Shown: positions 1 through 28,959 of the stretch, piece by piece
Layout: each line of letters opens with the position of its first letter
Position numbering within the stretch: position 1 is the stretch's first letter
Source of the DNA: Obrimoposthia wandeli
Lineage: Eukaryota
Assembly: GCA_977020255.1 (NCBI GenBank)
Contig: CDROCS010000877.1
Location: 1-64,000, forward strand
Direction: 5' to 3'
Length of the DNA stretch: 64,000 bases
Position numbers and translations under genes: made by a program
The notes under the pieces: model-generated
Databases searched by the model: none
What the model saw: only the letters and a program-made list of their open reading frames with translations
What the model was told of the DNA's origin: nothing

Positions 1-169
1 TCACACTAAGCATAAAATTGTCTTTTAGAATTTCAGTGTTAATAATTTCAGTTAAACATCATACATAAAAAGGAATATCAATTACAGTTCACAAGATTAT
101 ACACTATAATTACAAATTATAAAGGAATTATCGGTGGTATGCGATACACAGGGTAGTTCATGATGCCGT

Positions 170-860
170 TCAAGTCAGAAAGTTTCCTTCGATTATTGCT
201 GGGAGTTGGGCTGGCCTGTGCTTCTGCTCCTCCACGCAGAACGAGCACCAGCAATCGCAATAGTTTTCCAGCAGTGTACTATGGGTGCCCACTCTCTGCT
301 TGAGGTTGTCCTGGTTGTTAATGTAGTGTACGGAGAAGGTCGCTCTGCACATCGGGCAGGTTAAAGTCGAGGGGATTGTTGCTGTTGGTAATAATCCACG
401 TCTCGAGGCATTCGACGTGGAAGAGGTGGTCGCAGTTGTTGGGCTTGGGTAGAAGTCCACGATGCCCTGCAGCAGATGGAACATTCTCCAGACATTACTG
501 TGAGAGGATTGATGCTGAATTTGGGCTCGATTGAGTGACTGGTGGTTGTGTGATGTTTACACAAAAGTGGTCGGATTTGTCGTTCTGACAAACAGTAGTA
601 ACACCAACACTCTCCGAAATTCTTCCAACAGAATACCACCTGTACATATACATCCTCTTGGTTGGGTTCTAACATGATGAATCTTGCGAATTGTCTTCTG
701 CATACAGGGCAACAAGGGTATGTTGGATGTCCGAACTGTCCATAAGTTCTGATCCATGTCGATAAACATTCCTCAAATGGTTGCAGGTTTCGGGTCTTGT
801 TCTTCGTTCAAGCGGTTAGATCTTCCAAACATATTGGGCATTCTTCGGACATTCTAAATA
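170..860 (-). pseudogene. Two tandem RING-finger (E3 ligase-like) modules at the polyprotein C-terminus, frameshifted
   Basis: Rejoined frames give CPICLEDL..(TCNH)..ECLSTWI..CCPVCR (840-700) and CSIC..NCDHLFHVECLETWI..TCPMCR (483-347). Each is followed by a CxCxxC motif (ECWCYYC; DCWCSFC). Confidence 0.75.
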
Positions 861-1783
861 CATGATGATGATTACTTCACATGAGTTTTATATATTTCCC
901 TACTATTTGTACAATCGCTTCTAGATATTTCTACATATTTCACACTAATTTATCTACAACCTCCTCTTTCTGACTTATCATATTTCTTGATTGGAGGCGG
1001 AGGTAAGTGGTCGCAATTCACTTCCTCCATGGTGGTGTGTTACAGCATTGCAATCCTTCGCATTTTCGTCGTATTCTTGGGCATACTTGACTGCCTTTCA
1101 CGCACACGATTGTCAATAGAACCACTGTTGTGTCGACACTACGGCCATTCCAATTAGTGCATTGACCGCTATTATTCCGTTGTCCGATGGATTTCATAAT
1201 CATACTTCATTTTGTTGTTTGTCGGTTCGAATGACATTTCCATGGGTTTTGATCGGTTTCCATGTATTATGTCCGATTTTCTAAAAAATTCGTGGATTTG
1301 GGTGTTTTGTTTCCGATGGAACAGGTACTATTATTTTGATTGGAAATGATGTTTGGGATCTAGTGATCGTTCCTCCACTTTTGTCCTCTTAATAATTGTA
1401 CTTTGGTTTCTACCAATTGAGCTCTTTTTTTCTTTCGCTTCTGTCTTTGTTCTGATCACTGTCGGTTTTTTGGAATGGGGTTTACTTTCTCGTTTACCTT
1501 TGTCTTCTTTTTCACTAGGATTGGTTTTTTGGGAATGATTTTCCTGGGTTTGATACTTCTCTCTATACCGGATTTACGAAATCGATTTGTTCTGGTATCT
1601 TAGAGTTATGTAGAATATTTCGCCCACCTGTTATTATCATGATTATGGTCGAGGTCTCTGTAGTATTACTGGAAATTCGATTACACAGACATTCTGTAAA
1701 AATGTGGTACTAACATTTGGCTTTGGATTTCGAATCTGATTCCGCCATCTGGGTTGGGACATTACTGTTACTCTTGTCGGTTT

Positions 1784-2359
1784 CTAGCAATCTGAAAATA
1801 TCCTAACGGAATTCCATACGGATTTACGTCGTCTACCTGTGATCATAATCCTGTCGACAATTTTCCAGATGCGTTCATCTCTAGGCAATATTAATGACTT
1901 TGTTCGGATACTTTGGATAATCCGCTTCCTCTTTGATATTGTTATCCGTAGGTATAACACTCTTTCATGATAGAATAAAATTAGATTGTAATCGGGTGTA
2001 CTTTGGTCGATCTTTATTCTGACCTGTCGGATGACATACAATTTCTGATCAATATTGTCGGTTGCTGACGTCTGTAGATGAATGTCTACTACGTGATTTG
2101 TTTTTAGTAGGGGGATTTCTATGTATACTGCCCGTATTACGTCTTGTCTCCATTTACTGATCATGATCTCATAACTAGCCTTGGTAGTGGTGATTTGTAT
2201 GATCAGCATGATTCCTATGATCGTTCGATTCCTAAACTCAGGAACTTCAATGAAACAAGTCAAATTACTCATATAGTACGGTCTTTCCTCGATATGTTCA
2301 TATATCGTTGGCTGGTACTCTGGTGCTGGTTCATCTAGAAATGGTGGTCTTGGGCACAT
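1784..2359 (-). CDS. Polyprotein segment of unknown function (beta-rich, basic)
   Basis: 191-aa ORF; joined to the upstream TM segment by restoring one A in an A5 run near 2375. Confidence 0.5.
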   Translation of the reverse strand: MCPRPPFLDEPAPEYQPTIYEHIEERPYYMSNLTCFIEVPEFRNRTIIGIMLIIQITTTKASYEIMISKWRQDVIRAVYIEIPLLKTNHVVDIHLQTSATDNIDQKLYVIRQVRIKIDQSTPDYNLILFYHERVLYLRITISKRKRIIQSIRTKSLILPRDERIWKIVDRIMITGRRRKSVWNSVRIFSDC

Positions 2360-2716
2360 ATACTTGTGTTGAATTTTTGTAAATTCACTTGACCTGTTCG
2401 GCTTGCGAGATCATGACGTTTCTTTTTTGATTTCAACTCTATCTTTGTACAACAAAACAAGATGAGTAATATTAATATTATAAATCCAATGATCAGTGCC
2501 AGTATTGGATTAACCACCCTCTAGAATACCATAACGTATTGCTGGTATCCCTTTACTCTTGATGGTTAATATTTTAAATTTGTGTGCACTTTGGTTGGAC
2601 ATGTCACTGAGAAGTACTATTTTAGTTTGTCCAAATGTGTAGCCTTCGCATGTGACAACATCAATTCCATAATGTCCATTTAGTGTTTCCATTTCGGTCG
2701 CTGGGACTATACACAT
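2335..2716 (-). pseudogene. Small type-I membrane module: lumenal Cys-containing part, TM helix, CC and basic stop-transfer
   Basis: ORF 2510-2716 is in frame with 2729-3529 across one TGA; removing one G near 2517 joins VNPILALIIGFIILILLILFCC-TKIELKSKKKR. Confidence 0.55.
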
Positions 2717-2728
2717 TAATCCTGGACA

Positions 2729-3529
2729 TCAATTTACACACATGATCATCACGGCTTTACTGTGGGATGTCTTGATTATTTCTAGGGTGTTATCTAGATT
2801 TCTCAAATGTAAATTATATTCGGATAGTGTCATCAATTCGGCTTTACTGGTTGGCATGGCTTGCAGTACCAATCCAATTACTACTCCATAAATCAATCCT
2901 TGTGCAACGGTGCACAGGGCCTTGACTGACCTTTTGCAAAGGGTTTTAATTATCAATCGTTTGAGATATATCTGTTTCTGATTAGATCGTTTTGTTATCT
3001 GTCGTTGTTTTGACATCTCCTCGATTCCATTTTTTCCGATAATCAACTGTACCTGTTTACCTTGTATCATCAACTTTCCGAATCCATTTTTGGCGGACAA
3101 GCATGTTTTATGTCCTTCCATCGTTTCAATTATCACTCTCTTACTTCCATACTCACGTGTTTTGATGACATCGCCGTCGAATATATACGTTGGTCCTTTC
3201 GTATCAGCATCTTTTTGTATTTCCTTTACAATTCGTTTTCTTCGCTTGCATCCGGCGAATGTTGTTGATATTCGGTCAAGTGTGCGCTGTCGGTCAGCTT
3301 CGTAATCTATTCGGAATTGATTCAGTATTCTGTTTTGTGGGTAAAATATCGCTTCATTTACTATGTTGTCTTCGATCCTTTCGTCTAGATACACAAGCAC
3401 TTTGTTCATCGGTCCATTTGGTCTTTTCATCTTTACAAACTGAAATCTTTTACTGTCGGTTCTCATAGATCGAAGACATTTTCGGATGATCCATACATCA
3501 ATTAATCCTAACAACACTAATAGCATCAT
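2729..3529 (-). CDS. Polyprotein segment: TM helix, basic cytosolic domain, internal signal peptide-like stretch
   Basis: 266-aa ORF in frame with 3545-6562 across a single TAG; hydrophobic MMLLVLLGLIDVWII and GLIYGVVIGLVLQAMPTSKA. Confidence 0.55.
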   Translation of the reverse strand: MMLLVLLGLIDVWIIRKCLRSMRTDSKRFQFVKMKRPNGPMNKVLVYLDERIEDNIVNEAIFYPQNRILNQFRIDYEADRQRTLDRISTTFAGCKRRKRIVKEIQKDADTKGPTYIFDGDVIKTREYGSKRVIIETMEGHKTCLSAKNGFGKLMIQGKQVQLIIGKNGIEEMSKQRQITKRSNQKQIYLKRLIIKTLCKRSVKALCTVAQGLIYGVVIGLVLQAMPTSKAELMTLSEYNLHLRNLDNTLEIIKTSHSKAVMIMCVN

Positions 3530-3544
3530 CAGTGCCGGCGTATG

Positions 3545-6500
3545 CTACTGTATGGTGTAGCTACGAAATTCGTTGAACCAGGAACTATTTCCGTGGTTGG
3601 AGCCTATCTCTTGTGCTCCCGTTATCGGCATTAAACAACTTAACAAGCCTATCGCTAGCAATCTTTGGTATTGAAAGCTGGGCACTGTTGTTGTAGCTTC
3701 ATTTGTTTCTCGTTGTTGCTTCCTCTTCTCGGTGTATTTTTCTATTTCTCGGACGAGTAACGGTTTGAATTCCGTATCTGGTCTATTCTGTTTGATGTAG
3801 ACCATCGCTTCTTCTGGCGTGTGACCATGGTACTCTACCAACAAGGATACACCTATGGTAGGCGCTAACATTGTACCTTTTTTCTGATATATCAGAACGC
3901 CGTTTCCTTCTGTGACTTCGGCTTGGATGGTTTGAGTCAATTTCGTCAGATGTTGTTGTGCATCGTTTATTTCTCGATTGGAAGCATGTATGTATCGAGT
4001 GGTGTCGTCTTCAGTATTTTGACACAGACTAATTATCTCGTTTCCGACTTCAACAATGTTGATTACTCGGTTGATACTGTGGAACTTTAATCCAGCAGTG
4101 TCTATATCTCCTGGATGACATAAAAATACTTTTGGCATTATCTGTGTAATTTTGTCGACTCCGGCTAAGAATAACCCGGTCAATGATAATGCTTGGAGGA
4201 AATTCTTTTCCTTTGGATCCTCAGGAATGTCGTCCATCCGTCTTTGTTCTTGCAACATAAGTTGGTAATTTGCCAACTGTCCCAAAAAATTAAGATTTGG
4301 GTTTGCAATACTTCTTCTCTCCTGTAGGTATTTTAGCGCTTCTAGTACCTGCATTCGTCTAGTCTTTATTAGATATGCTAATACTAGGGTTGCTGATCGA
4401 GAGATTCCTTTCTGGCAATGTACCAACTCTTTTCCTTGGTTTCGAAGTTCTCTGTGAAGTATTTCGTTTGTTTCTACGAACCATTCGAGAAGATTAGCGT
4501 CCATTGAGTCTTTTACTCGTAATGTAATAGCTCTGATTGTCTGATATTGTGATTTGTGATTCATTGTAACGTTGATCACATATGTTATCCCTTGTTCCAA
4601 CAGTTTCTTTTCATCTGTTGCATCTTCCACATTTCCGAGGTATAACTTATCTGGAATGATCTCGCTCATTGGTGGCATTAATTCTGACTCTTCAAGTTTT
4701 AGTCTTTCTAATCTCTTCTCTATTTGTTCGTCGATGTTGGATAGTTTCGCCAGTTTCTTCCCTCTCAGCATTCGTATTGCTGGAGAGATATTCATCTTTA
4801 TCTCTGATGTCTGTTCCTTTGTTGAGTCTTCTTCCGACTCGGTCTCTTCTGCAGATTTAATTCGTCTTTCTTGTATATTCTGTTTCACGAATTCTATGTT
4901 TTGTCTTTTTCTGCTCTCTTTAGCGAATTCAACCTCCATGGTTCTTCCGAATCGCTCTATTATGTCATCTTCGGATTCTGTTGATTCTGTATCGTTACTT
5001 TCCGGTTCGCTGTCTTCACTAGACTCGCTTGAAGGGTATTCTGGTATGTCTGTCTGGACTGAAATTAATGAAGGGGTAAGAATAATTGGATTGATTTCCC
5101 CTTCGTATTTGTGAATCGGATACGGTATTACACTATCTTTAAGTATCTCAACTTGGAACTGTGCTCCATAGCACATGACAATTGTTTCTAATTTACCCAT
5201 GATGGACAATCCATCGAAATAGGTAACATTCAGCTTAGATATCGGTGTTTTCGCATAATTAATTAAATTTACTCGTATCTCGGTTGATGACGGCCATCGA
5301 TTTTTTAGTAAAATTATAATTTCGTCGTTTATCGATGTGATCACACTTGGCGCGGATGATACTATTTCAGCATGATATTTTGGCTGGATTGAGTTGGTCA
5401 CTTGTTCTCGGATCATATTGATTCTTTGTGGTTTTTTATTTTTAGCTTCCCACTTCCGGTATCCGCTGTCAATGCGTAATTCTGCCGTTGCTTTGATAAT
5501 TTTATTGTTGGTCACTTCCGGTTGGTTTAGCGAATGAAATCCTTCTATTACGCTCAACCTTACAGATACTTCCGTTTGATCTGTGTCTAACCGGTGAGAT
5601 TCTGGTATACAACATACAATTGTCTTTCCATCAAAGTATTTGGTGTCCATCTGACAAATTATCTTTTCAGTGTCAGCGTCGATTAAATGGACTCTCATGA
5701 TAACTCTTTTCCCATGTGAATTACGTAATACCATTATTACATCGTGGTATTCTTGTTTGAGTCTTTTTGGTGTACCATGCAGTATGTGACCACCGGCCGG
5801 TTCCTTCTCTTCCTGACTGGCTAGTCCTGCTTCAGTACTGTCATAGTTCTGCCATGCAACTATGTTTGGTGTCAATGTGATTTCGATTATCACTTTCTCA
5901 GTCGTAAACACATTGGAGTTTTGATATAGTGCTGCGACTAATGTATTTCCGTCGTAGTATGACACTCTAAGTTCGCACAGAAATTCGTTTGTCAGTGCAT
6001 CTTTCACAATGACTTCTTTAGCCACATCTGTGGGTTGTGTTTTTTCGAAAACGACTATTATCTCTTCGTCTTCTTCTAATATCTCTTGTGGTGCGATGTG
6101 TCGGATTACTTCCTTTTCCTCTTGGTACTTCATTCTGAGCATATCAATTCTCGCTGGTTTTTCCTCGCTACCACTCGTCATCATGTTTATGTAGTTCCGA
6201 TCACTTACCATTCGTGTAAGTTTAATGGTATTGGTATTTGGCTTCAATTTCTGTGATCTTAACTCATATCGTGATGCATTATCTTTATTTGGTACTAATT
6301 TACATCGATTTGCATGTACAATCATCGGTTCCTTGTTCCGATTCTCCTCGTTGATTACTTTCAAATTTGTTGAGGTTGTCTGGATCACCTTGTATGGTCC
6401 TTTGTATGGTCTATGAAGTTTAAACGATAGACCTGGTTCGATGACTGGATAAAATATCATCACTTGATCTCCGACTCTAAATTCATGTGGTTTTGCTTTT

Positions 6501-6562
6501 TGTCGTATTGTTCCTTGTAACCTTCTTGATTGAATTTCAACTTCAATCCGGCTTTGGTCCAA
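3545..6562 (-). CDS. Integrase C-terminus (GPY/F) fused to three Ig/IPT-like repeats, an active DUSP and a pseudo-DUSP
   Basis: KLHRPYKGPYKVI; three repeats sharing Y[YF]DGx[TS]; IPDKLYLG..VINVT..VHCQKGISRSATLVLAYL..NPNLNFLGQL; second DSP-like fold lacking CX5R. Confidence 0.88.
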   Translation of the reverse strand: MDQSRIEVEIQSRRLQGTIRQKAKPHEFRVGDQVMIFYPVIEPGLSFKLHRPYKGPYKVIQTTSTNLKVINEENRNKEPMIVHANRCKLVPNKDNASRYELRSQKLKPNTNTIKLTRMVSDRNYINMMTSGSEEKPARIDMLRMKYQEEKEVIRHIAPQEILEEDEEIIVVFEKTQPTDVAKEVIVKDALTNEFLCELRVSYYDGNTLVAALYQNSNVFTTEKVIIEITLTPNIVAWQNYDSTEAGLASQEEKEPAGGHILHGTPKRLKQEYHDVIMVLRNSHGKRVIMRVHLIDADTEKIICQMDTKYFDGKTIVCCIPESHRLDTDQTEVSVRLSVIEGFHSLNQPEVTNNKIIKATAELRIDSGYRKWEAKNKKPQRINMIREQVTNSIQPKYHAEIVSSAPSVITSINDEIIILLKNRWPSSTEIRVNLINYAKTPISKLNVTYFDGLSIMGKLETIVMCYGAQFQVEILKDSVIPYPIHKYEGEINPIILTPSLISVQTDIPEYPSSESSEDSEPESNDTESTESEDDIIERFGRTMEVEFAKESRKRQNIEFVKQNIQERRIKSAEETESEEDSTKEQTSEIKMNISPAIRMLRGKKLAKLSNIDEQIEKRLERLKLEESELMPPMSEIIPDKLYLGNVEDATDEKKLLEQGITYVINVTMNHKSQYQTIRAITLRVKDSMDANLLEWFVETNEILHRELRNQGKELVHCQKGISRSATLVLAYLIKTRRMQVLEALKYLQERRSIANPNLNFLGQLANYQLMLQEQRRMDDIPEDPKEKNFLQALSLTGLFLAGVDKITQIMPKVFLCHPGDIDTAGLKFHSINRVINIVEVGNEIISLCQNTEDDTTRYIHASNREINDAQQHLTKLTQTIQAEVTEGNGVLIYQKKGTMLAPTIGVSLLVEYHGHTPEEAMVYIKQNRPDTEFKPLLVREIEKYTEKRKQQRETNEATTTVPSFQYQRLLAIGLLSCLMPITGAQEIGSNHGNSSWFNEFRSYTIQ
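4262..4669 (-). other. Dual-specificity phosphatase domain with intact HCX5R
   Basis: VHCQKGISRS active-site loop; upstream Asp loop (VKDSMDANL); AYL motif; R..ANPNLNFLGQL motif typical of MKP/VH1-type DUSPs. Confidence 0.92.
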
Positions 6563-7330
6563 GCATCTTGTAATCTTTCCTTCATGACGACAATGTATTG
6601 TTCAGTTTCTAGATACTGAGATGCTGGCTCGGTCCACTCCAGATCCATTGGCATATTGTTCTGTCTGAGATACATCAGATAGAATGGTGTGTGACCCGTC
6701 GCCTCTCGAACTGAATTCCTGTAAGCATATAAACATGAAGGTAAATATTTATCCCAATCCTCTTGCTTGTCTGAGCAATAGGATTGTACCATCATACATA
6801 AAGTTTTATTAAACCTTTCTACCAGACCATCTGTCTGTGGGTGATATGGTGAAGTTTGTAACTTCATAATTCCGAATATCTTCGATACTGCTTTTATGAC
6901 TTCTCCAGTGAAGTTCTTTCCTTGATCCGTTAACAACTTTCTAGGCACTCCGTATCGAAATATTATCTCTTCCACTAAGATTTGCGCTATTGTTTCAGCT
7001 TTCTGGTTCTGCATGGGATATGCTTCTACCCATCTCGTCATGTAATCCGTAAATACTATGACGTACTTGTTTCCTTTACTTGATTCTCTCAATGGTCCCA
7101 ATATATCCATCGCTGTGAATTCCATTGGTGCCAAAGGAACTGGCATTGGTTTTAGTGGAACTTTAGTACGAGTTCCGGTGTCTTTTCTGGTTAAACATAC
7201 TTTACATTGTTTACACCATTGTTTTATGTCGTCTTCCATACCATCCCAATGGTACTGGCTATTGTCTTTCGCCCTGACAGATGTCCTCCTAGTGTTCCAT
7301 CGTGATACTGGATCATCACTGCTGTTTTCA
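6460..7330 (-). CDS. pol: Retroviral-type integrase (HHCC + DDE core)
   Basis: HDGTLGGH..WCKQCKVC; MDILGP..TDYMTRW..TDQGKNF..YHPQTDGLVERFNKTL. Confidence 0.95.
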
Positions 7331-8500
7331 ATGACTTCGGAATTACTACTACTATTTTTCCGACATTATTGACAATATACAAGATTCCTTCTTTTATCGA
7401 GTATTTTTTCGTCATTTCATCGTTTAGATCTCCTTTCACCAACAATTCTTTGATTAGACTCAGTTCTTCATCTTCTTTCTGTTCTTTGATGATCTCTTTG
7501 TCTATTTTACCCGTTTTTAGCAAAATCGTCAGTAGATTTGCTTCTCCATTTTGGTCATTGGTTTCATCTTGTTCTTCCTCTGGAATTATGTTTCCTTTCT
7601 CATCTACATTTGTCAATCTCGATAAACAATCTGCGTTGCCATTCGACTTTCCGGTTCTATAACGGATTTCTAGATCGAATTCGGCCAATTTTAGAAACCA
7701 TCTGTTCAACCTACTCATCTCATCTCTATGTTTATATAAGAACTGTAATGGTTTGTGATCTGTATACAGGAATACCTTTTGTCCTAGCAAATAGTGTCTG
7801 TACTGTCTACATGAATACACTATGGCTAGACATTCCTTTTCGATAACAGAGTATCCTCTTTCGGCTCTGTTTAATCCTCTACTCGCATACGCGATGACGT
7901 GTTCTCTTCCTTCGTCATCCTCTTGTCCCAATACTGCTCCTACAGCATAGTTACTTGCATCTGTCATGAGTATGAATTGTCGGTTTATATCTGGAAACGC
8001 TAATATTGGTGCTTTTATCAGTCTTTCTTTTAAATGCTCGAACGCTTGTTGTGCTTCTTCTCCCCATATGAACTTCTTATCTTTTCTCGTCAACTTCCTC
8101 AATGGTGTTGCTATATCTGAAAAATGTTCAACAAATCGTCTATAATAATTCGCAAGGCCTAAAAAACTCTGTATCTCCTTAACAGTCTTTGGCGCTAAAT
8201 GTGCTTTTACTTTCTCGATCTTTGCCGGATCAGGTCGAATGCCTTCTTTCGATACTATATGTCCTAAAAATGTTACTCGCTCTTTAGCCCATTCGCATTT
8301 TGTAGGTTTAACTTTAATTTAGCGTTTTCCAGTCTTTTAAATACAACTTCAAGATTTTTTAAATGTTCTTCGAACGTTTTTGAAAATATTATTATGTCAT
8401 CGATATAAACCATCGTGTTTGCACACGATGCGAGTACAAAATTCATGCAACGCTGAAATGTTGCTGGAGCTCCTGTCAGTCGAATGGCATCTTTTCGCAT
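7224..8500 (-). pseudogene. pol: RT C-terminal half and RNase H, two single-base frameshifts
   Basis: GAPATFQR..VYIDDIIIFS; FLGHIVS..FLGLANYYRRFV; TDASNYAVGAVL..EKECLAIV..YTDHKPL..NADCLSR. Confidence 0.95.
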
Positions 8501-11500
8501 TCGTATAGTCCATCTCCGCAGGAAAAGGCTGTTTTGTGTTTATCCTCTTCCTCTATCTCGATTTGCCAGTATCCACTCTGCAAATCTAATGTTGTAAAAT
8601 AATCTGAATTACCCAATTTATCGAGCATCTCTTCGATTCTAGGTAATGGATACACATCTTTTCTTGTGATCTTGTTCAGTTCTCTGAAATCTATACAGAA
8701 TCTCATTTTCCCATCCTTCTTTTTTACCAACACCACAGGTGCTGAGAATGGCGAAAAACTCGGTCTAATTACTCCTGTTTTAGACATATCTTCTATCTGA
8801 CTTTTTACTTCATCTTGTAACTGTAATGGTACTCGATATGGTCTTCTTCTGACTACTTTGTCTTCTGTCAGTGGTATTGTATGTTTTATGACAGGTGTTT
8901 CTCCTATGTCATATGGATTTTTTGCAATTACTTTCGGAAATTTATGTATTAGATCAAGTAATTGTTTCTTTTCTCTAGTTGTCAGTCTTTCTGATTGGAT
9001 TACTATTTCTTCATAATCATTCGTATCTTTATCGAGTTTCATAGCACACACGGTGGGATTCTCCATCTGTGCTATCTTTCCCAACCTCATTCCTCTGTAT
9101 AATAGAATGTCATTGTTGGTTGTATTCATCAGTCTAACTGGTATTTTGTGGTTTTCGATCAGGCATACTGTACTCACAACTGGTAATTCGTATTTCTCTA
9201 TGAAATCTCGTGATGGTTCGAACACAACTGGTCCTTTATCTTCTGATAATGTGTGACCTTGAATGAGAAATTGTGATCTTTTACCGATTTTTATAGGATT
9301 TTCTATAATTACATCAATTTGGTTTATTTGTCTGTTTGATGTGCTATCCTTCAATCTTGGATCTTGTAAATCAATACTTATCCCTTTGAGTTGTGATAAT
9401 ACATCCATTCCTAAAATTGTAGGTTCAGGACATTCTTTCATGATTCTAACTGGTATAGTGATCGTATTACGTCCAATTATAAATGTACATGGTAATATTC
9501 CCGTCACTTTAACAGGGTCTCCATTGACCGATACCAAGAATTCATCTGGTTCTGCCATTGTTCGTTTCTGTTCCTCTGTCAAACAGTCTTCACTTACTAT
9601 CGAAGCTACAGCACCTGTATCAATTAAGGCTTTTACTCTTAAATTATTTACTCTAATGATAGCTGCTGGTCGCTGTGCTCCATTTATATTTCCCATATGG
9701 TATATTGTATTTATCGAATTATTACACTCTGTCAGTCCACTTCCTTTGTTTGGATAGTGAAATCTAATGTTTCTCACTTGTCGATCTATTATTCTTCGAC
9801 AAATCGGACATGATACCATTTCATTCGCACATCTTATTTTGTTGACCATGCAAACTGCGCATTCCGGATCTTCTAGTACGTATTCTAGTTCATTTATGTA
9901 CTCTTTCTCTTTTGTTTCAATTGTACTGTCATCTTTATCTCGCAGTAATTCAAAAATCGATCCGTATCCGTTTTGCGTAGTTTTTATTTTTAATTCTACC
10001 AAATCTCTGATTCTTTCTGCTTCTTTCGGATATAGTCTTCTCACGAATGACACTACCGGTGTGTCTTGTTGAGCCAAAATCTCTTTCCGTGTGATTTGGT
10101 ATTCGATTATACATTCGGTTTTCTGTTCTTTTTGCTTTATTTTGTTTTTAAAAGTACAAAATTCGCAAAATTCATGATGTAAAATTTTCTTAGGTAGCTC
10201 AAGAGTATATCTGTCGATAATTCGTTCTTTTTTACACTTGTGGCATTTAATTACGTCTTTACCATCCTTTTTTATAGCAAAAAGTCCCTTTTTTGCCAAT
10301 TTTTTAAGTCTTGGATCTTCGAAAGTTATTTCTCGATACTGTTCATCACATTCGTTCACTTCTCGCATAACTTCGAATATATCTTCAATTCGACTATTTG
10401 TTATTACTCTTCCTGTTATTAGAGCTGATTCTCCTTTTGGAATCTTGTCACTGTAATCGAAATCGGGTGCTTTTCCCGTTTGGATTTCTGGTACGTTTGA
10501 AGTTTTCAGTTTCAAAAGAAATGGACAATTTGGTGCATCTCTTTTATGACGTCTCATTGGGTTTTCATTCTTTTCCCATTCTCTAAACTTTACTCTACAC
10601 CATACGCATCGTACGACTTCCTCATGACCATAACTGCTTGTCACGTTTAACATTTCTAAACCTGATCTTGCCATTTTACGTGCCATTCCTTTTGAATAGT
10701 ACTGTTCTAATATATTTCGTCTCTTTCTCTCGAATCTCATGGGATCCCTTTCTGACAGATTCACATATGTTATTTTTCTCCTCGTCATCTCTTGTGGTCC
10801 GAGGTTTACGTTTTTGTAGTGAAGTATCGACTTTACTAGCGCTTCCTGTTTTTTGTCTGGGTACGAACTTCCCATACGGAACGTAGTGTATTTTTCCTTT
10901 TCGACTATGGGTCCTCTCAACATTTTTATCTCTCTCACTGAACTGTCATTCTTATAACTCTTGTTGTTTGGTAGTATAATTATTCCTTCAAACATTCTTA
11001 TTACGTCCATCCCAATCATGACTGGACTACCGCAATCTGTGAATATTCTAGCATTTAACTGTAATGCTCTTCCATCGATATTCAATGAACATTTCAGTGT
11101 TCCTTCCGACACTACATCTGTACCATTCACGTTAACAAATGTCTGTTTTCTAGGACATACTTCTCTTAATTCTTTTGATGACAAGATTTCTTTACTCAGT
11201 ACTGATACTGCAGATCCGGTATCAACTTCGGCAAGATATTCTCTTCCGTTCAATGTTACTGCTACTTGTGGTGGAGCATTTGGATTCTCATTTGATATCC
11301 TAGACTTCAGAATTCTTCTGGAATTATCTTTTTTGTCTTTTTCCTCTGCTTGTGGAATTTCACTGTAGCTCACTTTAGGCCATCTTATCATTAGGATGCC
11401 TCTCTTGAACTTTTCTTTCTCTTCCTTTAAATCCTTCATTGGATATAGGTTTAACGCTACTTCTTCCTTGTCTGGTAATGGAATCTTTGGTTTTCCTGGT

Positions 11501-14007
11501 ATCTTTGCATATACTCCTGGACTATCATTATCGTCGTCGTTGTTGTCTCGATAGTTTCTTGGTTCTCGCATCATGGTTCTCGTTTGGTGTTGTTCCTTCT
11601 TGAGGGCTCGCAACTCGTTCTCGTGATGATGGTGCATTAGATATTTTGCTAAAAATGGAAAACATCCAATTATAAGTTGCCAGGTGATTCCGGTTATCCT
11701 GTATAAACTATACGTAGACAACACCTGGGCTATAATTACCTGCACAAATTTAATTATAACATAAATACCTATGATACCCGAAAATAGTTGTCCTAAAACA
11801 AGGAATTTCCCCCACATCTTTCTAAGTGTCTGATGTGCTGCTTCCTTGAAATGACTTGGCGATAACAACATATCGAAATTCGCATATCTAGCTCCTGGTG
11901 GTAATGCTCGATGTACCATCTTCGTAAGTACTCTGGCTCTTTTTACTGGAAACATTATTTCGTTCCATGCCGCTTTTAAGTCTTTTTCATTGTACAATCC
12001 TGCGTTCTCCATATTTTCCACCGCTTCGAATTTCATTTTACCTTTAAGATTCGTCATTTTTATCATCGCTGGGGTTTTCGTTGGCTTTCGATCAGGTAAC
12101 GTTATCCATAGATCATTCGTCATCTGATATTCAGGTGCCATTATATTAGAGCAGCTGATTTCTTTAGTTGGAGTGTCTTTTGGAAGTATCATTCTCGTGA
12201 TTGGTTCAACAAAAAGATCTTTTAAATTATACGTTACTGCCAATTCACTCGTACATCGATCTGTTTTTCTCAACTGTACCTCTACTTTATTACACTTGTA
12301 AGTATACAATACTTCTCCCATGGTTTTAGCAAATACTCCTTCATCCAAGGGTAATAATGGTGCTACCATGTCTGGATTCGTAATAGCTAATGCTAACTTT
12401 GTTCTTACGATCTCTTTGTTTAGCTGGCAATCTCTTTCGATCATCATCCGATATAACTGTTCCATTTGCATCAATCCTTTATGATAATAGAAATCAATTT
12501 TATTATTAAAATACGTGTGTAGCTGCATATCTCTAGGTTTTAGCTCGGTTTCTGCCAATGCTATTGCTTCTTTGGACAAAACTATTCCTGGATAGTTTGT
12601 AGTACTAACAGTCATTCCGCATCGCGCTTTGTTTCTCTTTTTAATAAATATCAATCCTTCTTCTATTGATGTTGCCATTAACAGTGTAGGTGTCTTTGTC
12701 ATTGGAATTGGTCTTGTTTCATTTAGCAATCCTTTTCCAACTTTATTATACAGGAACCCTTCTCCATCTTTATTATACAGGAATCCTTTTATTTTATTAA
12801 AGCTAATCTCTTTCAAAAATACTAAAGAGCATTGTTTCGGATTCACGTGATACACAATTGTGGATTCGCCTGTAAAACAAGATGTATCTGTCATTTTACA
12901 TTCTGGATACTTCATCATTAGTTGTGTCTTTTTATCAAAATTGGCGGTCCATGTTTTTAATTCGATTTTGTAAGTTACGTCCATTACTAACTCGGTTACT
13001 TTGGTTCCACGCACGTTTTTTGTTCCTCCGTCACAAGATCCATCGGCCCATCGTTGTCCGACTCTCGTGACTGTTTCGTATCGTCTCACTCCAATTTTTA
13101 CATCAGGTTTGTAATTCTTGTCTACCTCTATTGTTCCCGTTCGAAATGCGTCTTCGCAATCTCTCGGCAAAACCTTATGTGCCTTGTACGGTGTGGTAGG
13201 TGTGATTTCCGACATAAAACTTCTATGGCCACAATAGAATTCGTGATAACTTGAATGGATTGAACATTCTTTCACTTCTACTTGTACTTTATCAACATCC
13301 TGATACACAAAGTAGTTTTCAACACCTTTAACTTCTAATTTTGACGGTTGTGATTCTGGACAGTCTTCGCTGTCAAGCAGTGAATACTTTTGTCCCATCT
13401 TTGGTATGCTACAGTCATATGCTATCAATCCTGATGCCTGTTGCATTCCCATGAACATTACTAACATCATCATCATCATTGTTGTGGACATATTTGGTTG
13501 ATTGTTTCTCTCTTTCGGACGGTATTGTTTATTCTCTCTTTGACGATTCTCATGACATTGTTCGTCATCGTCTTCATTCATTTCCACAATGGTTTTAGCG
13601 TAGTCACTTAATTTTGCCCAACCTCCATTTTCGTCAATTCGTCTCTGTAATACATTCTCGATCAAATACATTGCTTCATTTATTCCTTGTTTGACTTCGT
13701 GAGGTTGGCTCGTTCGTTCCGTCAATTGGAAACATAGATATGTGATCGCTGTAATTAACTTTTTATTTGTAGTTTGGTTTCCACATAATCTCGCTAAAAC
13801 TTCACCGTCATAAAATCTATCTATCGATGCATGGTATACATGATTCGCGGTCATTCTCTTTACTGCAGACATCTGTGATCTAACTGCTTTAGTCAAATTG
13901 TCTGTTATATCGGTTGTTTCATCTCTGTACATTTTGAACAACTTCGGCTTCACTTGCCTAAGAATTCCCGTAAGTATATCTTTACTACTTGGAACTTCTG
14001 AATTCAT
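8476..14007 (-). CDS. pol: 1843-aa polyprotein: Bcl-2-like, signal peptide, chuvirus-like glycoprotein, protease 1, BIR-BIR-RING, protease 2, RT N-terminal half
   Basis: ENGGW; LIAYDC..FYCGH..YKCNKVE..WGKFLVLG; VDTGSA; CVWC..WEKNENPMRRHKRDAPNCPF; CPICR; IDTGAV; SPFSAPVVLVKKKDGKMRFCIDFRELN..LDLQSGYWQI. Confidence 0.93.
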   Translation of the reverse strand: MNSEVPSSKDILTGILRQVKPKLFKMYRDETTDITDNLTKAVRSQMSAVKRMTANHVYHASIDRFYDGEVLARLCGNQTTNKKLITAITYLCFQLTERTSQPHEVKQGINEAMYLIENVLQRRIDENGGWAKLSDYAKTIVEMNEDDDEQCHENRQRENKQYRPKERNNQPNMSTTMMMMMLVMFMGMQQASGLIAYDCSIPKMGQKYSLLDSEDCPESQPSKLEVKGVENYFVYQDVDKVQVEVKECSIHSSYHEFYCGHRSFMSEITPTTPYKAHKVLPRDCEDAFRTGTIEVDKNYKPDVKIGVRRYETVTRVGQRWADGSCDGGTKNVRGTKVTELVMDVTYKIELKTWTANFDKKTQLMMKYPECKMTDTSCFTGESTIVYHVNPKQCSLVFLKEISFNKIKGFLYNKDGEGFLYNKVGKGLLNETRPIPMTKTPTLLMATSIEEGLIFIKKRNKARCGMTVSTTNYPGIVLSKEAIALAETELKPRDMQLHTYFNNKIDFYYHKGLMQMEQLYRMMIERDCQLNKEIVRTKLALAITNPDMVAPLLPLDEGVFAKTMGEVLYTYKCNKVEVQLRKTDRCTSELAVTYNLKDLFVEPITRMILPKDTPTKEISCSNIMAPEYQMTNDLWITLPDRKPTKTPAMIKMTNLKGKMKFEAVENMENAGLYNEKDLKAAWNEIMFPVKRARVLTKMVHRALPPGARYANFDMLLSPSHFKEAAHQTLRKMWGKFLVLGQLFSGIIGIYVIIKFVQVIIAQVLSTYSLYRITGITWQLIIGCFPFLAKYLMHHHHENELRALKKEQHQTRTMMREPRNYRDNNDDDNDSPGVYAKIPGKPKIPLPDKEEVALNLYPMKDLKEEKEKFKRGILMIRWPKVSYSEIPQAEEKDKKDNSRRILKSRISNENPNAPPQVAVTLNGREYLAEVDTGSAVSVLSKEILSSKELREVCPRKQTFVNVNGTDVVSEGTLKCSLNIDGRALQLNARIFTDCGSPVMIGMDVIRMFEGIIILPNNKSYKNDSSVREIKMLRGPIVEKEKYTTFRMGSSYPDKKQEALVKSILHYKNVNLGPQEMTRRKITYVNLSERDPMRFERKRRNILEQYYSKGMARKMARSGLEMLNVTSSYGHEEVVRCVWCRVKFREWEKNENPMRRHKRDAPNCPFLLKLKTSNVPEIQTGKAPDFDYSDKIPKGESALITGRVITNSRIEDIFEVMREVNECDEQYREITFEDPRLKKLAKKGLFAIKKDGKDVIKCHKCKKERIIDRYTLELPKKILHHEFCEFCTFKNKIKQKEQKTECIIEYQITRKEILAQQDTPVVSFVRRLYPKEAERIRDLVELKIKTTQNGYGSIFELLRDKDDSTIETKEKEYINELEYVLEDPECAVCMVNKIRCANEMVSCPICRRIIDRQVRNIRFHYPNKGSGLTECNNSINTIYHMGNINGAQRPAAIIRVNNLRVKALIDTGAVASIVSEDCLTEEQKRTMAEPDEFLVSVNGDPVKVTGILPCTFIIGRNTITIPVRIMKECPEPTILGMDVLSQLKGISIDLQDPRLKDSTSNRQINQIDVIIENPIKIGKRSQFLIQGHTLSEDKGPVVFEPSRDFIEKYELPVVSTVCLIENHKIPVRLMNTTNNDILLYRGMRLGKIAQMENPTVCAMKLDKDTNDYEEIVIQSERLTTREKKQLLDLIHKFPKVIAKNPYDIGETPVIKHTIPLTEDKVVRRRPYRVPLQLQDEVKSQIEDMSKTGVIRPSFSPFSAPVVLVKKKDGKMRFCIDFRELNKITRKDVYPLPRIEEMLDKLGNSDYFTTLDLQSGYWQIEIEEEDKHKTAFSCGDGLYECEKMPFD
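9350..9680 (-). other. Retropepsin aspartic protease 2 (canonical position before RT)
   Basis: VKALIDTGAVASIVS..ILGMDVL; DTG at 9613-9621. Confidence 0.92.
9780..10760 (-). other. IAP-like module: BIR, degenerate BIR, internally deleted RING
   Basis: MARSG..VRCVWC..WEKNENPMRRH..PNCPF; LAKKGLFA..IKCHKC..HHEFCEFC; CAVCM..CANEMVSCPICRRII. Confidence 0.85.
10960..11290 (-). other. Retropepsin aspartic protease 1 (extra copy after the glycoprotein)
   Basis: VTLNGREYLAEVDTGSAVSVLS..VMIGMDVI; DTG at 11215-11223. Confidence 0.9.
11630..13491 (-). other. env: Signal peptide plus chuvirus-like (class III, gB-related) envelope glycoprotein with C-terminal TM region
   Basis: MMMMMLVMFMGMQQASG|LIAYDC; ECSI..FYCGHRS; DCQL..LALAITNPD..GEVLYTYKC.KVEV..CTSELAV..FVEPITR; WGKFLVLGQLFSGIIGIYVII. 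This Cys and motif spacing matches chuvirus G as I recall it. Confidence 0.82.
13588..13986 (-). other. Bcl-2-like domain (divergent BH1, clear BH2)
   Basis: EVKQGINEAMYLIENVLQRRIDENGGWAKLSDY aligns by eye with the Bcl-xL BH2 region (..LEPWIQENGGWDTF); helical domain of about 135 aa. Confidence 0.62.
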
Positions 14008-14060
14008 ATCACCTCTGATATCTTCATTCCTCTCTGCACTATACTGCTCTAATGACGCTG

Positions 14061-17000
14061 CTAACTGTCAATGCTTAGATGTCTCTCTTCATCAGTTTGT
14101 GGTGCAGTTAGAACGTTTCGTAATATACTTTCGCCTTTTCTAGGTCTTCCAGGTCCTCTTCGAAAATACTGATACTCAGTTTGATTCTCTCCTGGATCAT
14201 ACGGTTCATCATTAAACTGTATCTCTTGACTTGGTCCTTCTTCATGGCCAATCTCTTCATTTTGTCGCATCATCTGCTCTGCTTGTCTATCTTTGTATGC
14301 AGCATGCCAAATTGGTGAATCCAAATCTACAATCTCGGATACTTCGTCTTCTCCTACTAGTTGGGTTACGGTTTCGTTTTGTCTCACTTGGTTAGCTGTA
14401 TCCGTGACTTCATCTTGTCTGATTTGAATTATATCTGGTTCTGGTGGCACCTCGACCACTGGAGTTGTCAACTCATTTTCTAAATTCATGTCTTGTAATT
14501 CAGCTACATACGGTTCTGGTGTGGATGTCTTGTTCCAAGCTTCAGCTACATCATTATCTCCGCTTTCGCTTGAACTGGCTAAAATTTCTATAGGCGTTTT
14601 TATCATTTCTAACGCAGAATTCAATATCTCCGTTAATCCTTCATTATCTATTAACTCTTGACGTCCTACAGTGATGACATCAATTTTTTCCTCTAATTCA
14701 TTTCCTATCGGATATCCACACTCGACTGGTACGTCTTCATCATCTAGTGATCTCCCTTTATAATGGAACAACATATTCATTCCATCAATTTCGAGTTTCT
14801 CGGCCAACTTTTTCCGAATCGTTTTCATTGTTTGATACACGTTAAGTTTTTCATGTATTATCTGTCCGGAAATTAATCGAAGTGAAATTTTCATCGTTCC
14901 TTTTTGGTTTGATCTCTGTACATAACGACCATAACCTTTCAATAATCCTCGGGGTACTTCTTTGTAACCCAAGTTATCATGACTATGTTTAACCAATTCT
15001 GCACGCACTTCTTCCAATCGGTGCACTTTAATTGTTTGCAATTTGGCCAAAACTTCTGGAGCTTCACTCGTTTCATCTAACGGTTGATTTAACGTCTCCT
15101 TAGCTTCACTAATTATCTTTTTTACATTTTCCATACTCATAGCATTTCTCGCTGCCTCTACATGTTCAGTCATAGGTTGTGCATTACACGTTTTCTCTAT
15201 TGGTGTCTCATATGCTTCTAATATTCTATTCATTAAATCATTCATCTCTTCTCTCGAGTGTAGACTTTTCTCTTGTTTCGACAACGTAGATGAATTCGCC
15301 ATCTTTGTATGTGGTGAATCTTTAATTATTCCCAACATTCGTTCAAATTTACTATCACTATCTTCAAAATCTATTTCGCGTCGAAGCTCGGTTTCGCGAT
15401 TCCTATCACTGTCATCGCTTACATAACTAAAATTTCCCTTTGGTTTCGGCGAACTCTCACGACTATTTGTCTTGTCGACATTATTATTATTATATCTACC
15501 GGAATTATTATATCTCTCAGCTCCTTGCTGTCCTACGTAATTATTGTATCTCTCAGCTCCTTGCTGTCTGTCTGCATAGTTATTGTACCTACCTGGTGAC
15601 TGTTGTCTATCTGTATACTGATTATTCAGTCTCCATGGCTGTGGAGTATATCCACCACCTCTATTCCATGGCGGAGGTGAATTATATCCTCTATAATTAT
15701 TTCCAAAATTATTATTACCGAAATTATTATTTCCAAATCTGTTAGCTCCGAACTCTTTACTTCTCGTACAATCTCTCGAATAGTGACCCATTTGTTTACA
15801 CGTGTAACACATTATTCTCCCTCGAATATCTATCTTATTTTGTTCATCTTCGAACTGTACTCTACGACTATTCTGTCTATTATCATAGCGTCCTCTAAAA
15901 TCATTTCTTCGGAAATTCGATTCAAAACCGCTTCCTCGTATATTGAATCTTCCGTCACTACTTCCTGTATTATTTCCAAATCGAGAGTCACTTCGCTCTC
16001 CTCTGTTTGCGTTATAATTCCTATCGTCTCCTCTCCAAGGTTGGCGATTTCCTGAATTATCTCTATTAAATCTATTCCTGGAATCATCTCTATTTCTATT
16101 CCACGAATCATTACTATTTCTACCTCTTGAATCATCTCGATTCCTGTTCCAAGACTCATTATTATTTCTACCTCTGGAATCATCTCGATTCCTACTTCGG
16201 AAATTATCTCTGTTTCCGTTACTGGATTCATCTACTTTTTCAAACTTATTTTGTCCATAATTTCGATTCTGAAAATTACTCGGTTCTGTTTTGTTCACAA
16301 ATACCTTTGTCTTATCGTCGTCACCTGCAGTCATTGCGTAAATTGCCAATGCTGCGTTATTTTTTATATTTTTCTCAATCTCTCTCGCCTTTCGCACGGC
16401 GTTATCAAAATCATTTGTATCCGATACAGCTAATAACACTTTAATATCCTTTTTCAATCCTCCTCTAAATATATCTAACAAAACCTCTGCCATTTCATTT
16501 TGGTTCCGGTCATTTTCCGCTACTTGTGCTTCTGGAGCTACAGGATTACCGTCCTGATTTCTCATTATTCTTCTTGGGTACGCTCTTGCGGCCAAGGTTC
16601 TCAAAACATACGCGTATTCATTCACGCCTTCATCATGTTTCTGTTTCCGTTCTCTCATGAGTCGCTTATTTACTTTGGCTAAGTCTCCTAATACCAATTT
16701 TCCAATAAAAGCATTTTCCAACGTTGGCCAATCTATGCGTTCTGCTTCTGTCAAATGTTTATACACTTCAAGTGCTAATTCGGTTAAATGTGCCTGTACT
16801 CTGACACATTTTTCTTTATCGTTCCATCCTTAAACATCTGCACAACTCGAATATTCTGCGAGGAAGTCACAAATACTTTCCTCATCTCCTTTAAACTTTG
16901 TAATCTGCAATGATCCTGAAAAATTGGGTCTCAACGTCGCATTTAAAGCTTGTGCCAACTGTTCGGCATTCATGTCACCTACATTATTTCCTGCATTAAT

Positions 17001-17400
17001 ATCTGCTTGAACTCCTGGGTGAGCCATATCTTCAATTATATCGTCTTCAACTATTTCTTCAATATTATTTACTTGAACTTCTTCAATCACTACTGGATTG
17101 GCAATTTCAATTTCTTCTGGGTTTTGAACTTCAAGATTATCAATTTCTTCTGGGTTTATGTCACCAAATAACTCAGTCAGCTCAAAACTGTCGGTTGAAA
17201 CTGCTGATTGATCAACGTCTCTTTCTGATACGTTTTCTTCGACTCTAGTCTTTTCTGTTACTTTGTTATCTGTTTGGGGAACCTGTTCAATTCGGTTAAC
17301 TTTATTATTATTTGTCTCTTCCTTGGGAATCTGACTTTGTCTTCTAGTATTATACGCGGGTCCTTTTCTATTATCCGTTGTCTTATCAATTATGTATTCG
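14061..17400 (-). CDS. gag: Gag with CCHC knuckle, R/N/D-rich tract, ubiquitin-like domain and AT-hook; one premature stop at 16830
   Basis: GWNDKEKC..LTELALEVY; RKQKHDEGVNEY..L; CYTCKQMGHYSRDC (15768-15809); frame open upstream to ~17400; Ubl at ~14680-14895; RRGPGRPRK at ~14140-14163. Confidence 0.88.
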
Positions 17401-17564
17401 TTTACGATATCAATTTACTTATTATTTTTATCTTATTTCACAATTCTTATTTTACGATTTTTTATCTCTTTAATTAGTTCGAGGACAGAGTCTCCCGACT
17501 TAACCTATTCAATTAATTACTTCGAGTATCAATCCACTCGATTCTCACTTTATCAAATTTACTG

Positions 17565-18078
17565 ACTCGAGGAACAAATCCACTCGATTTCTCAAAACTT
17601 ATCGAATTCTTACTTCGAGGAACAAATCTACCCGATTTCTCAAAAACTTATCAAATTCTTAACTTCGAGGAACAAATCTACCCGATTTCTCAAAAACTTA
17701 TCAAATTCTTAACTTCGAGGAACAAATCTACTCGATTTCTCAAAAACTTATCAATTCTTAACTTCGAGGAACAAATCTACCCGATTTCTCAACACTTATC
17801 AAATTCTTAACTTCGAGGAACAAATCTACTCGATTTCTCAACACTTATCAAATTCTTATCTCAATTTACTTATATCTTCTTCTGAAACTTATTCTAAATT
17901 TGCTTATATCTTCTTCTGAAACTTATTCTCAATTATCTGAAACTTATTCTCAATATCTGAAACTTATTCTTAATATCTGCACTTATTCTGTTTACCTGAA
18001 ACTTATTCTCAATTATCTGAAACTTATCTGAACTTATTATATTTACCTGAAACTTATTCTCAATATCTGAACTTATTC
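17565..18078. repeat. 5' leader tandem arrays: ~6 x 49-50 bp, then a ~20-bp unit array
   Basis: CTTCGAGGAACAAATCTA recurs at 17613, 17663, 17713, 17762, 17811; CTGAAACTTATTCT recurs through 17880-18078. Confidence 0.9.
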
Positions 18079-18106
18079 CACGTGAATTCGCTGTGTCCGA
18101 CGAGCT

Positions 18107-18125
18107 ATCCTCACTCGGGGCACCA
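18107..18125 (-). promoter_or_regulatory. Primer-binding site complementary to the 3' end of elongator tRNA-Met
   Basis: Plus strand ATCCTCACTCGGGGCACCA matches metazoan tRNA-Met(e) 3' end (..GATCCTCACNCGGGGCACCA); 8 nt from the LTR end. Confidence 0.85.
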
Positions 18126-18654: not shown

Positions 18655-19615
18655 TCACCTTTTGATGATCAAAAACAATTTATCAATTTATGATCGATTT
18701 CTTACTCAATTAATTTCACCTTTAATGATGATCAAAACAATTTATCAAATCAAATTATTCTTCCAGATAATTTACTCGTTTACTTCTAATTCAATAATTT
18801 CACCTTTAACGATGATCAAAGCAATTAATCAAATCAAATTATTATTCCAGATAATTTACTCGTTTTACTGCTAATTCAATAATTTCACCTTTAATGATGA
18901 TCAAAACTTTATCAAATTAAATTATTATTCCAGATAATTTACTCGTTTACTTCTAATTCAATAATTTCACCTTTAATGATGATCAAGACTTTATCAATCA
19001 AATTATTATTCAAGATAAATTACTCGTTTACTTCTAATTCAATAATTTCACCTTTAATGATGATCAAAACAATTTATCAAATCAAATTATTATTCAAGAT
19101 AAATTACTCGTTTACTTCTAATTCAATAATTTCACCTTTAATGATGATCAAGACTTTATCAATCAAATTATTATTCAAGATAAATTACTCGTTTACTTCT
19201 AATTCAATAATTTCACCTTTAATGATGATCAAAACAATTTATCAAATCAAATTATTATTCAAGATAAATTACTCGTTTACTTCTAATTCAATAATTTCAC
19301 CTTTAATGATGATCAAATTATTATTCAAGATAAATTACTCGTTTACTTCTAATTCAATAATTTCACCTTTAATGATGATCAAATTATTATTCAAGATAAA
19401 TTACTCGTTTACTTCTAATTCAATAATTTCACCTTTAATGATGATCAAATTATTATTCAAGATAAATTACTCGTTTACTTCTAATTCAATAATTTCACCT
19501 TTAATGATGATCAAATTATTATTCAAGATAAATTACTCGTTTACTTCTAATTCAATAATTTCACCTTTAATGATGATCAAATTATTATGCCAGATAATTT
19601 ACGCGTTTACCTCTA
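18655..19615. repeat. Tandem array, 66-bp core with 81/84-bp variants
   Basis: AAGATAAATTACTCGTTTACTTCTAATTCAATAATTTCACCTTTAATGATGATCAAA repeats (19261, 19327, ...). Confidence 0.95.
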
Positions 19616-19974
19616 ATTTGCTGCACGGAACTTGATCCTCCGTTGGGTCCGTTCTAATCGACTTCGCTCAGAGTCGCTTGTCCACACCTCTTTCCGGGTA
19701 TCCTTCAGTTCGCCGAGACGATCCCGGAGTGCTGTAGAGTTGAGATCTAGTACGTCCGGTTACACGGGGAAATTGTTCTCTTTCGGCTTCTTTCTCGTAT
19801 GAACTCGAATTGCCTCAAATCTGTTTTCTCTCTCGTCTGCGAATTCGAATTGTCTTAGATCTGCTTTCTCGTCTGGAAATCAGAATAATTGCTTTATTCT
19901 CTAAAATCGATTACCTTGTGATTTGATGGCTCCTTTATATATTTATCTGATTTATTTTTGCAGCTGAGTTACTT

Positions 19975-28945: not shown

Positions 28946-28959
28946 TACAGTTCAATCAT

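Follow-up and report, generated by a model that had tools for sequence, protein, structure and literature searches.

What are two dual-specificity phosphatase (DSP or DUSP) domains, one with an intact active site and one without, doing behind the integrase of a retrotransposon? The question arises from a 64,000-nucleotide stretch of Obrimoposthia wandeli DNA (assembly GCA_977020255.1, contig CDROCS010000877.1, positions 1 to 64,000; hereafter the window), in which a preliminary description had placed an active DUSP paired with a catalytically dead one at positions 3720–4669. This span is correct and contains both domains, DSP1 and DSP2, on the minus strand within the open reading frame (ORF) 3545..6601 (1018 codons). 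The ORF opens with the C-terminal domain of the integrase from a giant Ty3/gypsy element, and one frame runs from there through both DSPs, confirming their retrotransposon location after integrase. DSP1 (4250..4669, start Met at 4669) is an intact DUSP10/MKP5-like catalytic domain without a rhodanese/kinase-binding domain, identified by Pfam DSPc, Protein Data Bank (PDB) matches, motifs and structural model; DSP2 (3722..4150) is a pseudophosphatase of DSP fold, recognized by Pfam, PDB matches, ESM Atlas, alignment columns and model. They are joined by a helical linker of ~34 residues (4151..4252; model helices 138–159 and 164–179). The pairing of an active with a dead domain holds, DSP1 being called active from its sequence motifs. 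We estimate a probability of about one-half that intact copies of the element release from their polyprotein a cytosolic, perhaps membrane-tethered product of immunoglobulin (Ig)-like repeats, DSP1 and DSP2 that dephosphorylates JNK and thereby lowers stress- or wound-induced cell death.

DSP1 matches Pfam DSPc over model positions 1–131 of 133 (E 2.7e-33, 115 bits; cut-off 33.5 bits). It combines a DSP fold with the general-acid Asp (4496–4513), the HCX5R loop (HCQKGISRS, 4394–4420) and AYLI, an AYLM-type motif (4367–4378), all on the minus strand; the VHCQKGISRS loop reported earlier as intact is so (4394–4423), and the catalytic Asp, Cys and Arg are kept. Conserved are 21 of the 23 near-invariant DUSP positions and 34/36 core positions, and the model, which is based on a DUSP alignment, matches MKP-2 with Z 25.7 (root-mean-square deviation 1.3, 143 aligned). 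The best PDB sequence match is DUSP10 (E 1e-24), followed by DUSP4, 1, 2 and 16. [quoted passage not shown] DSP1 also carries the MKP-type JNK-docking LNFL (F-site, helix 5) at 4283–4294 on the minus strand. Specifically, its PNLNFLGQL fits the motif PN[FL][NSG]F[LM]GQL, which occurs in 40 of 52 rhodanese-type domains and in 9 of the 90 other domains compared after 37 vertebrate-like proteins are dropped (44/68 and 15/120 with all included).

According to the available portion of a study on MKP7 and MKP5, the FNFL or L449–M452 motif segment of these enzymes docks on JNK1, their kinase-binding domain is not needed where JNK is concerned, and UV-induced apoptosis is reduced by the catalytic domain of MKP7 on its own (PMC4802042). 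Because the catalytic domain itself docks on JNK, one captured without its N-terminus could still work, and the dispensable kinase-binding domain together with F-site docking favors JNK over p38 as target. The preliminary description had proposed MAPK, JNK, STAT or Gag as substrates; the MKP-type best matches, the F-site motif and the available docking data (PMC4802042) leave MAPK/JNK as our best guess, and the others are weighed below. The same element carries a BIR domain and a weak Bcl-2-like segment, consistent with an action on cell death; in planarians JNK is a trigger of apoptosis (PMC4055413, available portion).

Several observations weigh against this reading. Neither Pfam Rhodanese nor a profile drawn from the N-termini of 12 MKPs finds a rhodanese/kinase-binding domain in the DSP ORF. 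At the site of MKP5-Y435/MKP7-Y271 DSP1 has Leu, where 47 of 49 MKP-motif domains are aromatic (Tyr/Phe) and only P0015 and P0147 have Leu; MKP7 requires this aromatic site for JNK binding (PMC9676401, available portion). Two residues past the catalytic Cys, DSP1 carries Lys, against Ala in 49/49 MKP-motif domains, and the Glu at ORF residue 725, in one core column before the phosphate-binding loop (P-loop), is possibly damage in the present copy. Three trees leave DSP1 unplaced and not in the DUSP10 group, approximately unbiased (AU) tests leave all five placements standing, even that of an atypical-DUSP control (p 0.43–0.66), and a count of rare residues does not single out P0015. The best 150 of 17,742 whole-ORF matches from 1.84 billion proteins, 28 of which were domain-scanned, include no DUSP-bearing sibling element; cellular tandem DUSPs make up the top multi-stretch matches, and five of those scanned cover the integrase end without DSPc. 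The predicted TM-score (pTM) of 0.56 for the tandem model leaves the domain packing unfixed. Finally, the present copy is broken upstream, with five frame changes and a gag stop between gag and the DSP frame. Judged by its motifs, DSP1 would behave as an MKP catalytic domain yet fails two MKP family features, and we do not class it as a member.

The P-loop Lys, the Leu at the aromatic docking site and the presence of three Ig/TIG-like repeats in the same product would also suit a DSP1 that hits another host target (STAT, another kinase, a phosphoinositide or an RNA 5′ phosphate), its specificity being set by the repeats and DSP2. We consider this unlikely, as the Leu is shared with the rhodanese-bearing cellular MKP P0015, and the fold matches to PTEN (Z 16.9), baculovirus RNA phosphatase (Z 15.3) and PIR1 (Z 14.0) fall far under that to MKP-2.

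Since trees, AU tests and rare-residue count do not discriminate, MKP ancestry rests on best matches and motifs, and with three trees and five AU tests non-discriminating we claim no donor clade. As to the phylogeny suggested in the preliminary description, the trees leave the position of DSP1 among the DUSP groups unsettled, and kinship with VH1 or baculovirus phosphatases is disfavored by identities calculated outside the trees. Specifically, DSP1 shares 17–24% identity with pox- and baculovirus phosphatases versus 38–48% with cellular DUSPs, which argues against a poxvirus VH1 or baculovirus protein tyrosine phosphatase (PTP) origin. The best viral match of any kind reaches 32% (among 50 BFVD rows listed), and the viral fold matches are CpGV PTP-2 (Z 19.5), Orf virus OH1 (Z 18.9) and BVP (Z 15.3). 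Word-based searches (4 and 27 matches) returned host DUSPs only, and neither a phage nor an Rfam match was obtained. A nested host gene was rejected as an explanation, the DSPs having no introns and sharing the frame and base composition of the element. The A-rich composition of both DSPs equals that of the element (A 0.38–0.40), which together with the lack of introns marks them as long-resident cargo.

Might DSP1 instead serve the element's own proteins? Poxvirus VH1 dephosphorylates virion proteins, and DSP1 could be packaged in particles and, as these assemble or uncoat, act on Gag, Env or integrase. Its in-frame fusion to integrase would bring it into particles along with Pol, and the lost kinase-binding domain and the non-canonical residues at two MKP sites would fit such a role. 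The intact relatives P0053, P0048, P0066 and P0043, however, have no DUSP and bear differing post-integrase extensions, so DSP1 is not a core replication function; in addition, the MAPK F-site motif is exactly kept and the ancestry is non-viral. A role on the element's own proteins therefore appears improbable to us. Because the intact relatives bear different cargo there, the slot after integrase is variable. In these four relatives this cargo consists of extra aspartic proteases, or of domains bearing a signal and a transmembrane segment. Two of them, P0053 and P0048, carry env to integrase plus the extension in one ORF; as they read through in this way, the DSPs would belong to the polyprotein.

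For DSP2, the preliminary description had noted a DSP-fold pattern with an altered active site, and both features stand: the domain carries ITQIMP (4133–4150) and reads YQKKGTMLA (3863–3889) at the active-site loop, without Arg. It spans positions 2–129 of 133 of Pfam DSPc at E 1e-6 and 29 bits, which is under the cut-off of 33.5. All of its PDB sequence matches at E≤10 are DSP/PTP-type phosphatases (26/26, best E 9.3e-4), and ESM Atlas, a language-model search that does not draw on the DUSP alignment used elsewhere, gives DSPc as first match at 0.95 with 190/256 features shared. The near-full span, the uniform PDB matches and the ESM Atlas result establish the DSP fold. The ESM Atlas neighbors are viral DSP clusters, a proximity that according to the tool does not indicate transfer. 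In the model built with the DUSP alignment, the predicted local distance difference test (pLDDT) for DSP2 is 74–92, except for a loop region (~50–57). For the pair, the AlphaFold model reaches pLDDT 81.8; built with an alignment of 19 tandem-DUSP homologs, it is not independent evidence for the DSP2 fold, and at pTM 0.56 it does not fix the packing of DSP1 against DSP2. Fold searches with the pair model aligned DSP1 alone, not DSP2.

Replaced in DSP2 are the general-acid Asp, His, Cys, both Ser columns, Arg and the F-site motif. The domain conserves 6 of the 23 near-invariant positions, and 28/36 hydrophobic core positions versus 21/95 elsewhere (p 0.003–0.015 under rough drift expectations). 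Six active-site codons together are 10 or more base changes away from every canonical set, and these differences far exceed the ~0.6% decay of the copy, so the loss predates the present copy; that it is private to this copy, the possibility raised at the outset, is very unlikely. An origin of DSP2 as a duplicate of DSP1 is unsupported: the two share 21% local identity (15% in profile alignment), and DSP1 ranks 126th of 189 for rare residues shared with DSP2.

The retained fold raises the question of whether DSP2 is a trap of the STYX/MK-STYX type, which would bind phospho-MAPK or another phosphoprotein and shield it or pass it to DSP1. Tandem DUSPs with an active domain followed by a Cys-less one do occur, in 3 of the 16 cellular multi-domain DUSP proteins compared (P0054, P0057 and P0140), but those three keep the P-loop Arg. 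DSP2, having lost Arg, His, Ser, general acid and F-site motif, offers no phosphate cradle or MAPK dock for trapping, and the loss of the P-loop Arg in particular makes a phospho-trap most improbable. The reading that remains is a structural, positioning or partner-recruiting role beside DSP1.

The pair could also be passive cargo or a remnant, captured once and kept because the frame must stay open for the domains downstream, without benefit to element or host. The frame runs ~590 codons beyond DSP2, and for this reason its openness alone proves nothing; the few near-invariant positions left in DSP2 and the broken state of the present copy would likewise fit. Drift, however, would erode both domains, whereas DSP1, at 46–48% identity to its nearest cellular match, still has 21/23 invariant positions, and DSP2 is full length (2–129 of 133) with its hydrophobic core kept. 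We find passive carriage rather unlikely.

The course of events that we favor begins with a Burro-like GAG-ENV-POL gypsy element capturing the catalytic domain of a host MKP in the variable post-integrase slot. Intact family members would make the phosphatase within one giant polyprotein, from which the element's proteases would excise it; it would stay in the cytosol, possibly tethered through a hydrophobic segment after DSP2. Without a kinase-binding domain, DSP1 would dock on JNK (perhaps p38) via the LNFL F-site and strip its activating phosphates, dampening stress- and wound-induced death signaling in cells that express the element; it would thus act upstream of, and beside, the BIR and Bcl-2-like cargo. 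DSP2, predicted neither to bind phosphate nor to dock MAPKs, would most likely stabilize, position or recruit for DSP1, much as the dead second domain of receptor PTPs does.

The candidate tether is a signal-peptide-like hydrophobic segment directly after DSP2 (3614..3664, minus strand), identified by eye and under the 1.6 hydropathy threshold that segments at 3556, 2926 and 2755 pass; it may be a membrane tether and the start of a further membrane-bound part. The frame continues for ~590 codons with hydrophobic segments (1787..3544; stops at 3547, 2731, 2512 and 2413) without a family match in Pfam. The ~620 codons after DSP2 (1787–3664, minus strand), which hold several signal- or transmembrane-like segments and an RRKR site and likewise lack a Pfam match, are possibly a second membrane-protein cargo. 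On the other side, DSP1 is preceded by an acidic low-complexity linker with a coiled-coil-like stretch (4715..5032, from sequence) and by three Ig-like (IPT/TIG-like) tandem repeats of ~95 residues each (5102..6124), both on the minus strand. Of 2000 shuffles, 0, 1 and 0 attained the pairwise scores of the repeats, which have a Y[YF]DG motif in common. ESM Atlas suggests TIG (0.88, a lead only), and the low-confidence model is a beta-sandwich (pLDDT 53.6) with generic Ig-like matches at Z≤7.2. No homologue of the region was found among 2041 candidates of a word-based search, and sequence and profile searches of the PDB gave chance matches only. That the repeats act as a decoy for Rel/NFAT-type dimerization is a guess on our part.

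The internal region of the Ty3/gypsy element fills at least positions 1–18,125 of the window (at least 18 kb), with all features on the minus strand. From the 5′ end, a primer-binding-site-like sequence (18108..18125), recognized from sequence and with a 12-mer absent from the eLife table of such sites, is followed by a gag region (14061..17414; reading frames and Pfam) with one CCHC knuckle (15765–15809) and an in-frame stop (16830–16832). A ubiquitin-like domain (14679..14903) matches Pfam ubiquitin at E 0.0013 and ubiquitin, ISG15, SUMO and NEDD8 in the PDB, and the weak Bcl-2-like segment (13618..13806) reaches Pfam Bcl-2 at E 0.098, under the cut-off, with no Bcl-2 match in the PDB. Next comes a class III (mononegavirus/gB-type) fusion glycoprotein (11536..13491; PF24664 E 1.6e-95) that contains an internal signal, sits in frame between gag and pol, and is 40% identical to its counterpart in P0053. 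At 13429–13806 the Bcl-2-like segment is thus followed by the env signal, paralleling DSP2 and its signal-like segment, and both could in the end be tail-anchored. Positions 9391..11265 hold an aspartic protease, BIR in two stretches, a RING-like remnant seen by eye (9799–9861) and a second aspartic protease (Pfam Asp_protease in two stretches; BIR E 9e-13). Reverse transcriptase and RNase H (7258..9000, Pfam) show frame changes near 8480, 8318 and 7257. The integrase core and C-terminal domain (6299..7257; Pfam rve, Integrase_H2C2 and Integrase_p58_C) have a frame change near 6500–6535 and are 61% identical to P0053 and P0048. After these follow the Ig/TIG-like repeats, acidic linker, DSP1, DSP2, signal-like segment and same-frame codons, and finally two broken RING-finger-like frames (170..888; Pfam zf-rbx1 E 4.5e-6, zf-RING_2 E 0.034), which sit in the element's strand-biased region at the left window edge. 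The long terminal repeat (LTR) of the 5′ end lies right of the primer-binding-site-like sequence, its boundary not set, and the 3′ LTR lies beyond the left window edge; the 64-kb window contains no second LTR copy.

Over ~5070 codons, the damage totals five in-frame stops and five frame changes, one of which, at the gag/env junction, could be programmed. From the stops, decay is estimated at ~0.6%, and the copy is probably a fossil. The leader and probable 5′ LTR contain tandem repeats (17545–18078, 18664–19684 and 19919–20341, with units of 49, 66–84 and 53 bases). Flanking DNA has a GC content of 24–39%, fitting an AT-rich host; a planarian would agree with this, although base composition does not demonstrate one. 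An AT-rich frame of 330 codons (22217–23209, plus strand) contains a 198-base duplication and matches no family convincingly. Positions 23084–40466 and 44448–64000 form a giant inverted duplication, either a real palindrome or an assembly artifact, with arms 95–99% identical apart from indels and less alike centrally; should it continue, the element would have a mirror copy beyond the right window edge. Both arms contain an older second gypsy remnant of reverse transcriptase, RNase H and integrase (35014–36754, minus strand; 47994–50685, plus strand), and the spacer (40466–44448) appears by eye to hold decayed Polinton/adintovirus-type genes, with an integrase-like match at 40712–41173.

To our knowledge, retrotransposons seldom carry signaling enzymes. 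Rather tentatively, we suggest that a lineage of giant envelope-carrying retroelements encodes a JNK phosphatase of its own, accompanied by Ig-like repeats and by a pseudophosphatase as its dedicated partner. Combined with the BIR, Bcl-2-like, ubiquitin-like and RING cargo, these would form a multi-layer anti-death and anti-stress kit. Such a kit would be comparable to those of large DNA viruses and could tune host wound signaling and stem-cell survival. If the host is a planarian, a captured MKP would act one step before Burro-type apoptosis regulators, on the kinase that triggers death after wounding or stress (PMC4055413, available portion). DSP1 would offer a biochemically simple handle on whether these elements rewire host signaling, and DSP2 a case of a pseudophosphatase originating or persisting within a mobile element. 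The weight of the case is limited by the broken copy and by the fact that cargo capture by such elements is already established.

Among known elements, the planarian Burro/GYPSM1 is the closest in design, judged by its published description rather than by sequence. As described in the available portion of PMC6431247, it shares the series Gag, ubiquitin-like, Bcl-2-like, mononegavirus-type env and protease with BIR, an env placed in frame between gag and pol, an internal region of great length and cargo for host control; the Bcl-2 match here is weak (E 0.098). The present element has the order protease, reverse transcriptase, RNase H, integrase and, between gag and pol, an env of gB/mononegavirus type, as in Ty3/gypsy GAG-ENV-POL elements, and the Burro-type ubiquitin-like, Bcl-2-like, env and BIR cargo lies within its polyprotein. 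It differs from Burro, as far as the available description goes, in having one CCHC knuckle rather than two or three and no detected MATH or ankyrin; Pfam gave no match for MATH, ankyrin or dUTPase-like domains in the window, the 3′ end of the element lying outside it. Of the Burro-type length of over 30 kb with paired long LTRs, the window shows at least 18 kb of internal region. The post-integrase block of three Ig-like repeats and two DSPs is also unmentioned in the text of PMC6431247. Burro1 BIR-RING is reported to protect stem cells from apoptosis, as related second-hand in the available portion of PMC13465017. GAG-ENV-POL errantiviruses with HSV/gB-type env, which occur in Platyhelminthes, Nematoda and Bryozoa, resemble the element in gene order and env class and differ in that the available main text and seven supplements mention no phosphatase (PMC13524379); four short motifs of this element are absent from the available files of that study (first 400 characters of cells). 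The word "phosphatase" does not occur in PMC6431247, PMC13465017, PMC8532177, PMC13524379 with its seven supplements, PMC11410931 or PMC5408684. Literature listings and abstract openings, a scope that leaves out the primary Burro papers (Grohme 2018, Lee 2026) and Repbase, contain no retrotransposon-borne DUSP; the primary Burro papers, their figures or supplements, or Repbase may hold an earlier mention of a DSP domain. Cargo capture by Burro-like elements is already known, and DUSP cargo is new within the literature searched.

Viral phosphatases of the poxvirus VH1 and baculovirus PTP/BVP types share with DSP1 a DSP fold carried by a virus-like element; they differ in low identity and lower structural scores, and are mostly single-domain enzymes from DNA viruses. 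The catalytic domains of MKP5/DUSP10 and MKP7/DUSP16 match DSP1 in fold, catalytic triad and F-site motif. Unlike them, DSP1 has no rhodanese/kinase-binding domain, has Leu at the Y435/Y271 site and Lys in the P-loop, and sits in a retroelement polyprotein, joined to a dead DSP. As for the pair itself, two analogies drawn in the preliminary description are not supported. In Cdc14 the dead domain (DSPn) precedes the active one, the reverse of the order here; DSPn (PF14671) gives no match in the ORF or either domain. The 50 fold matches listed for the pair model, which aligned DSP1, do not include Cdc14, a result that does not decide the matter. STYX and MK-STYX keep the P-loop apart from Cys, including the phosphate-binding Arg, whereas DSP2 has neither that Arg nor the docking motif. 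P0054, P0057 and P0140 come closer in their active-then-dead order, although their dead domains keep the Arg that DSP2 lacks. The same order is seen in the D1/D2 domains of receptor PTPs, membrane receptors of the classical PTP fold in which the active domain comes first and the dead domain second, as in DSP1–DSP2.

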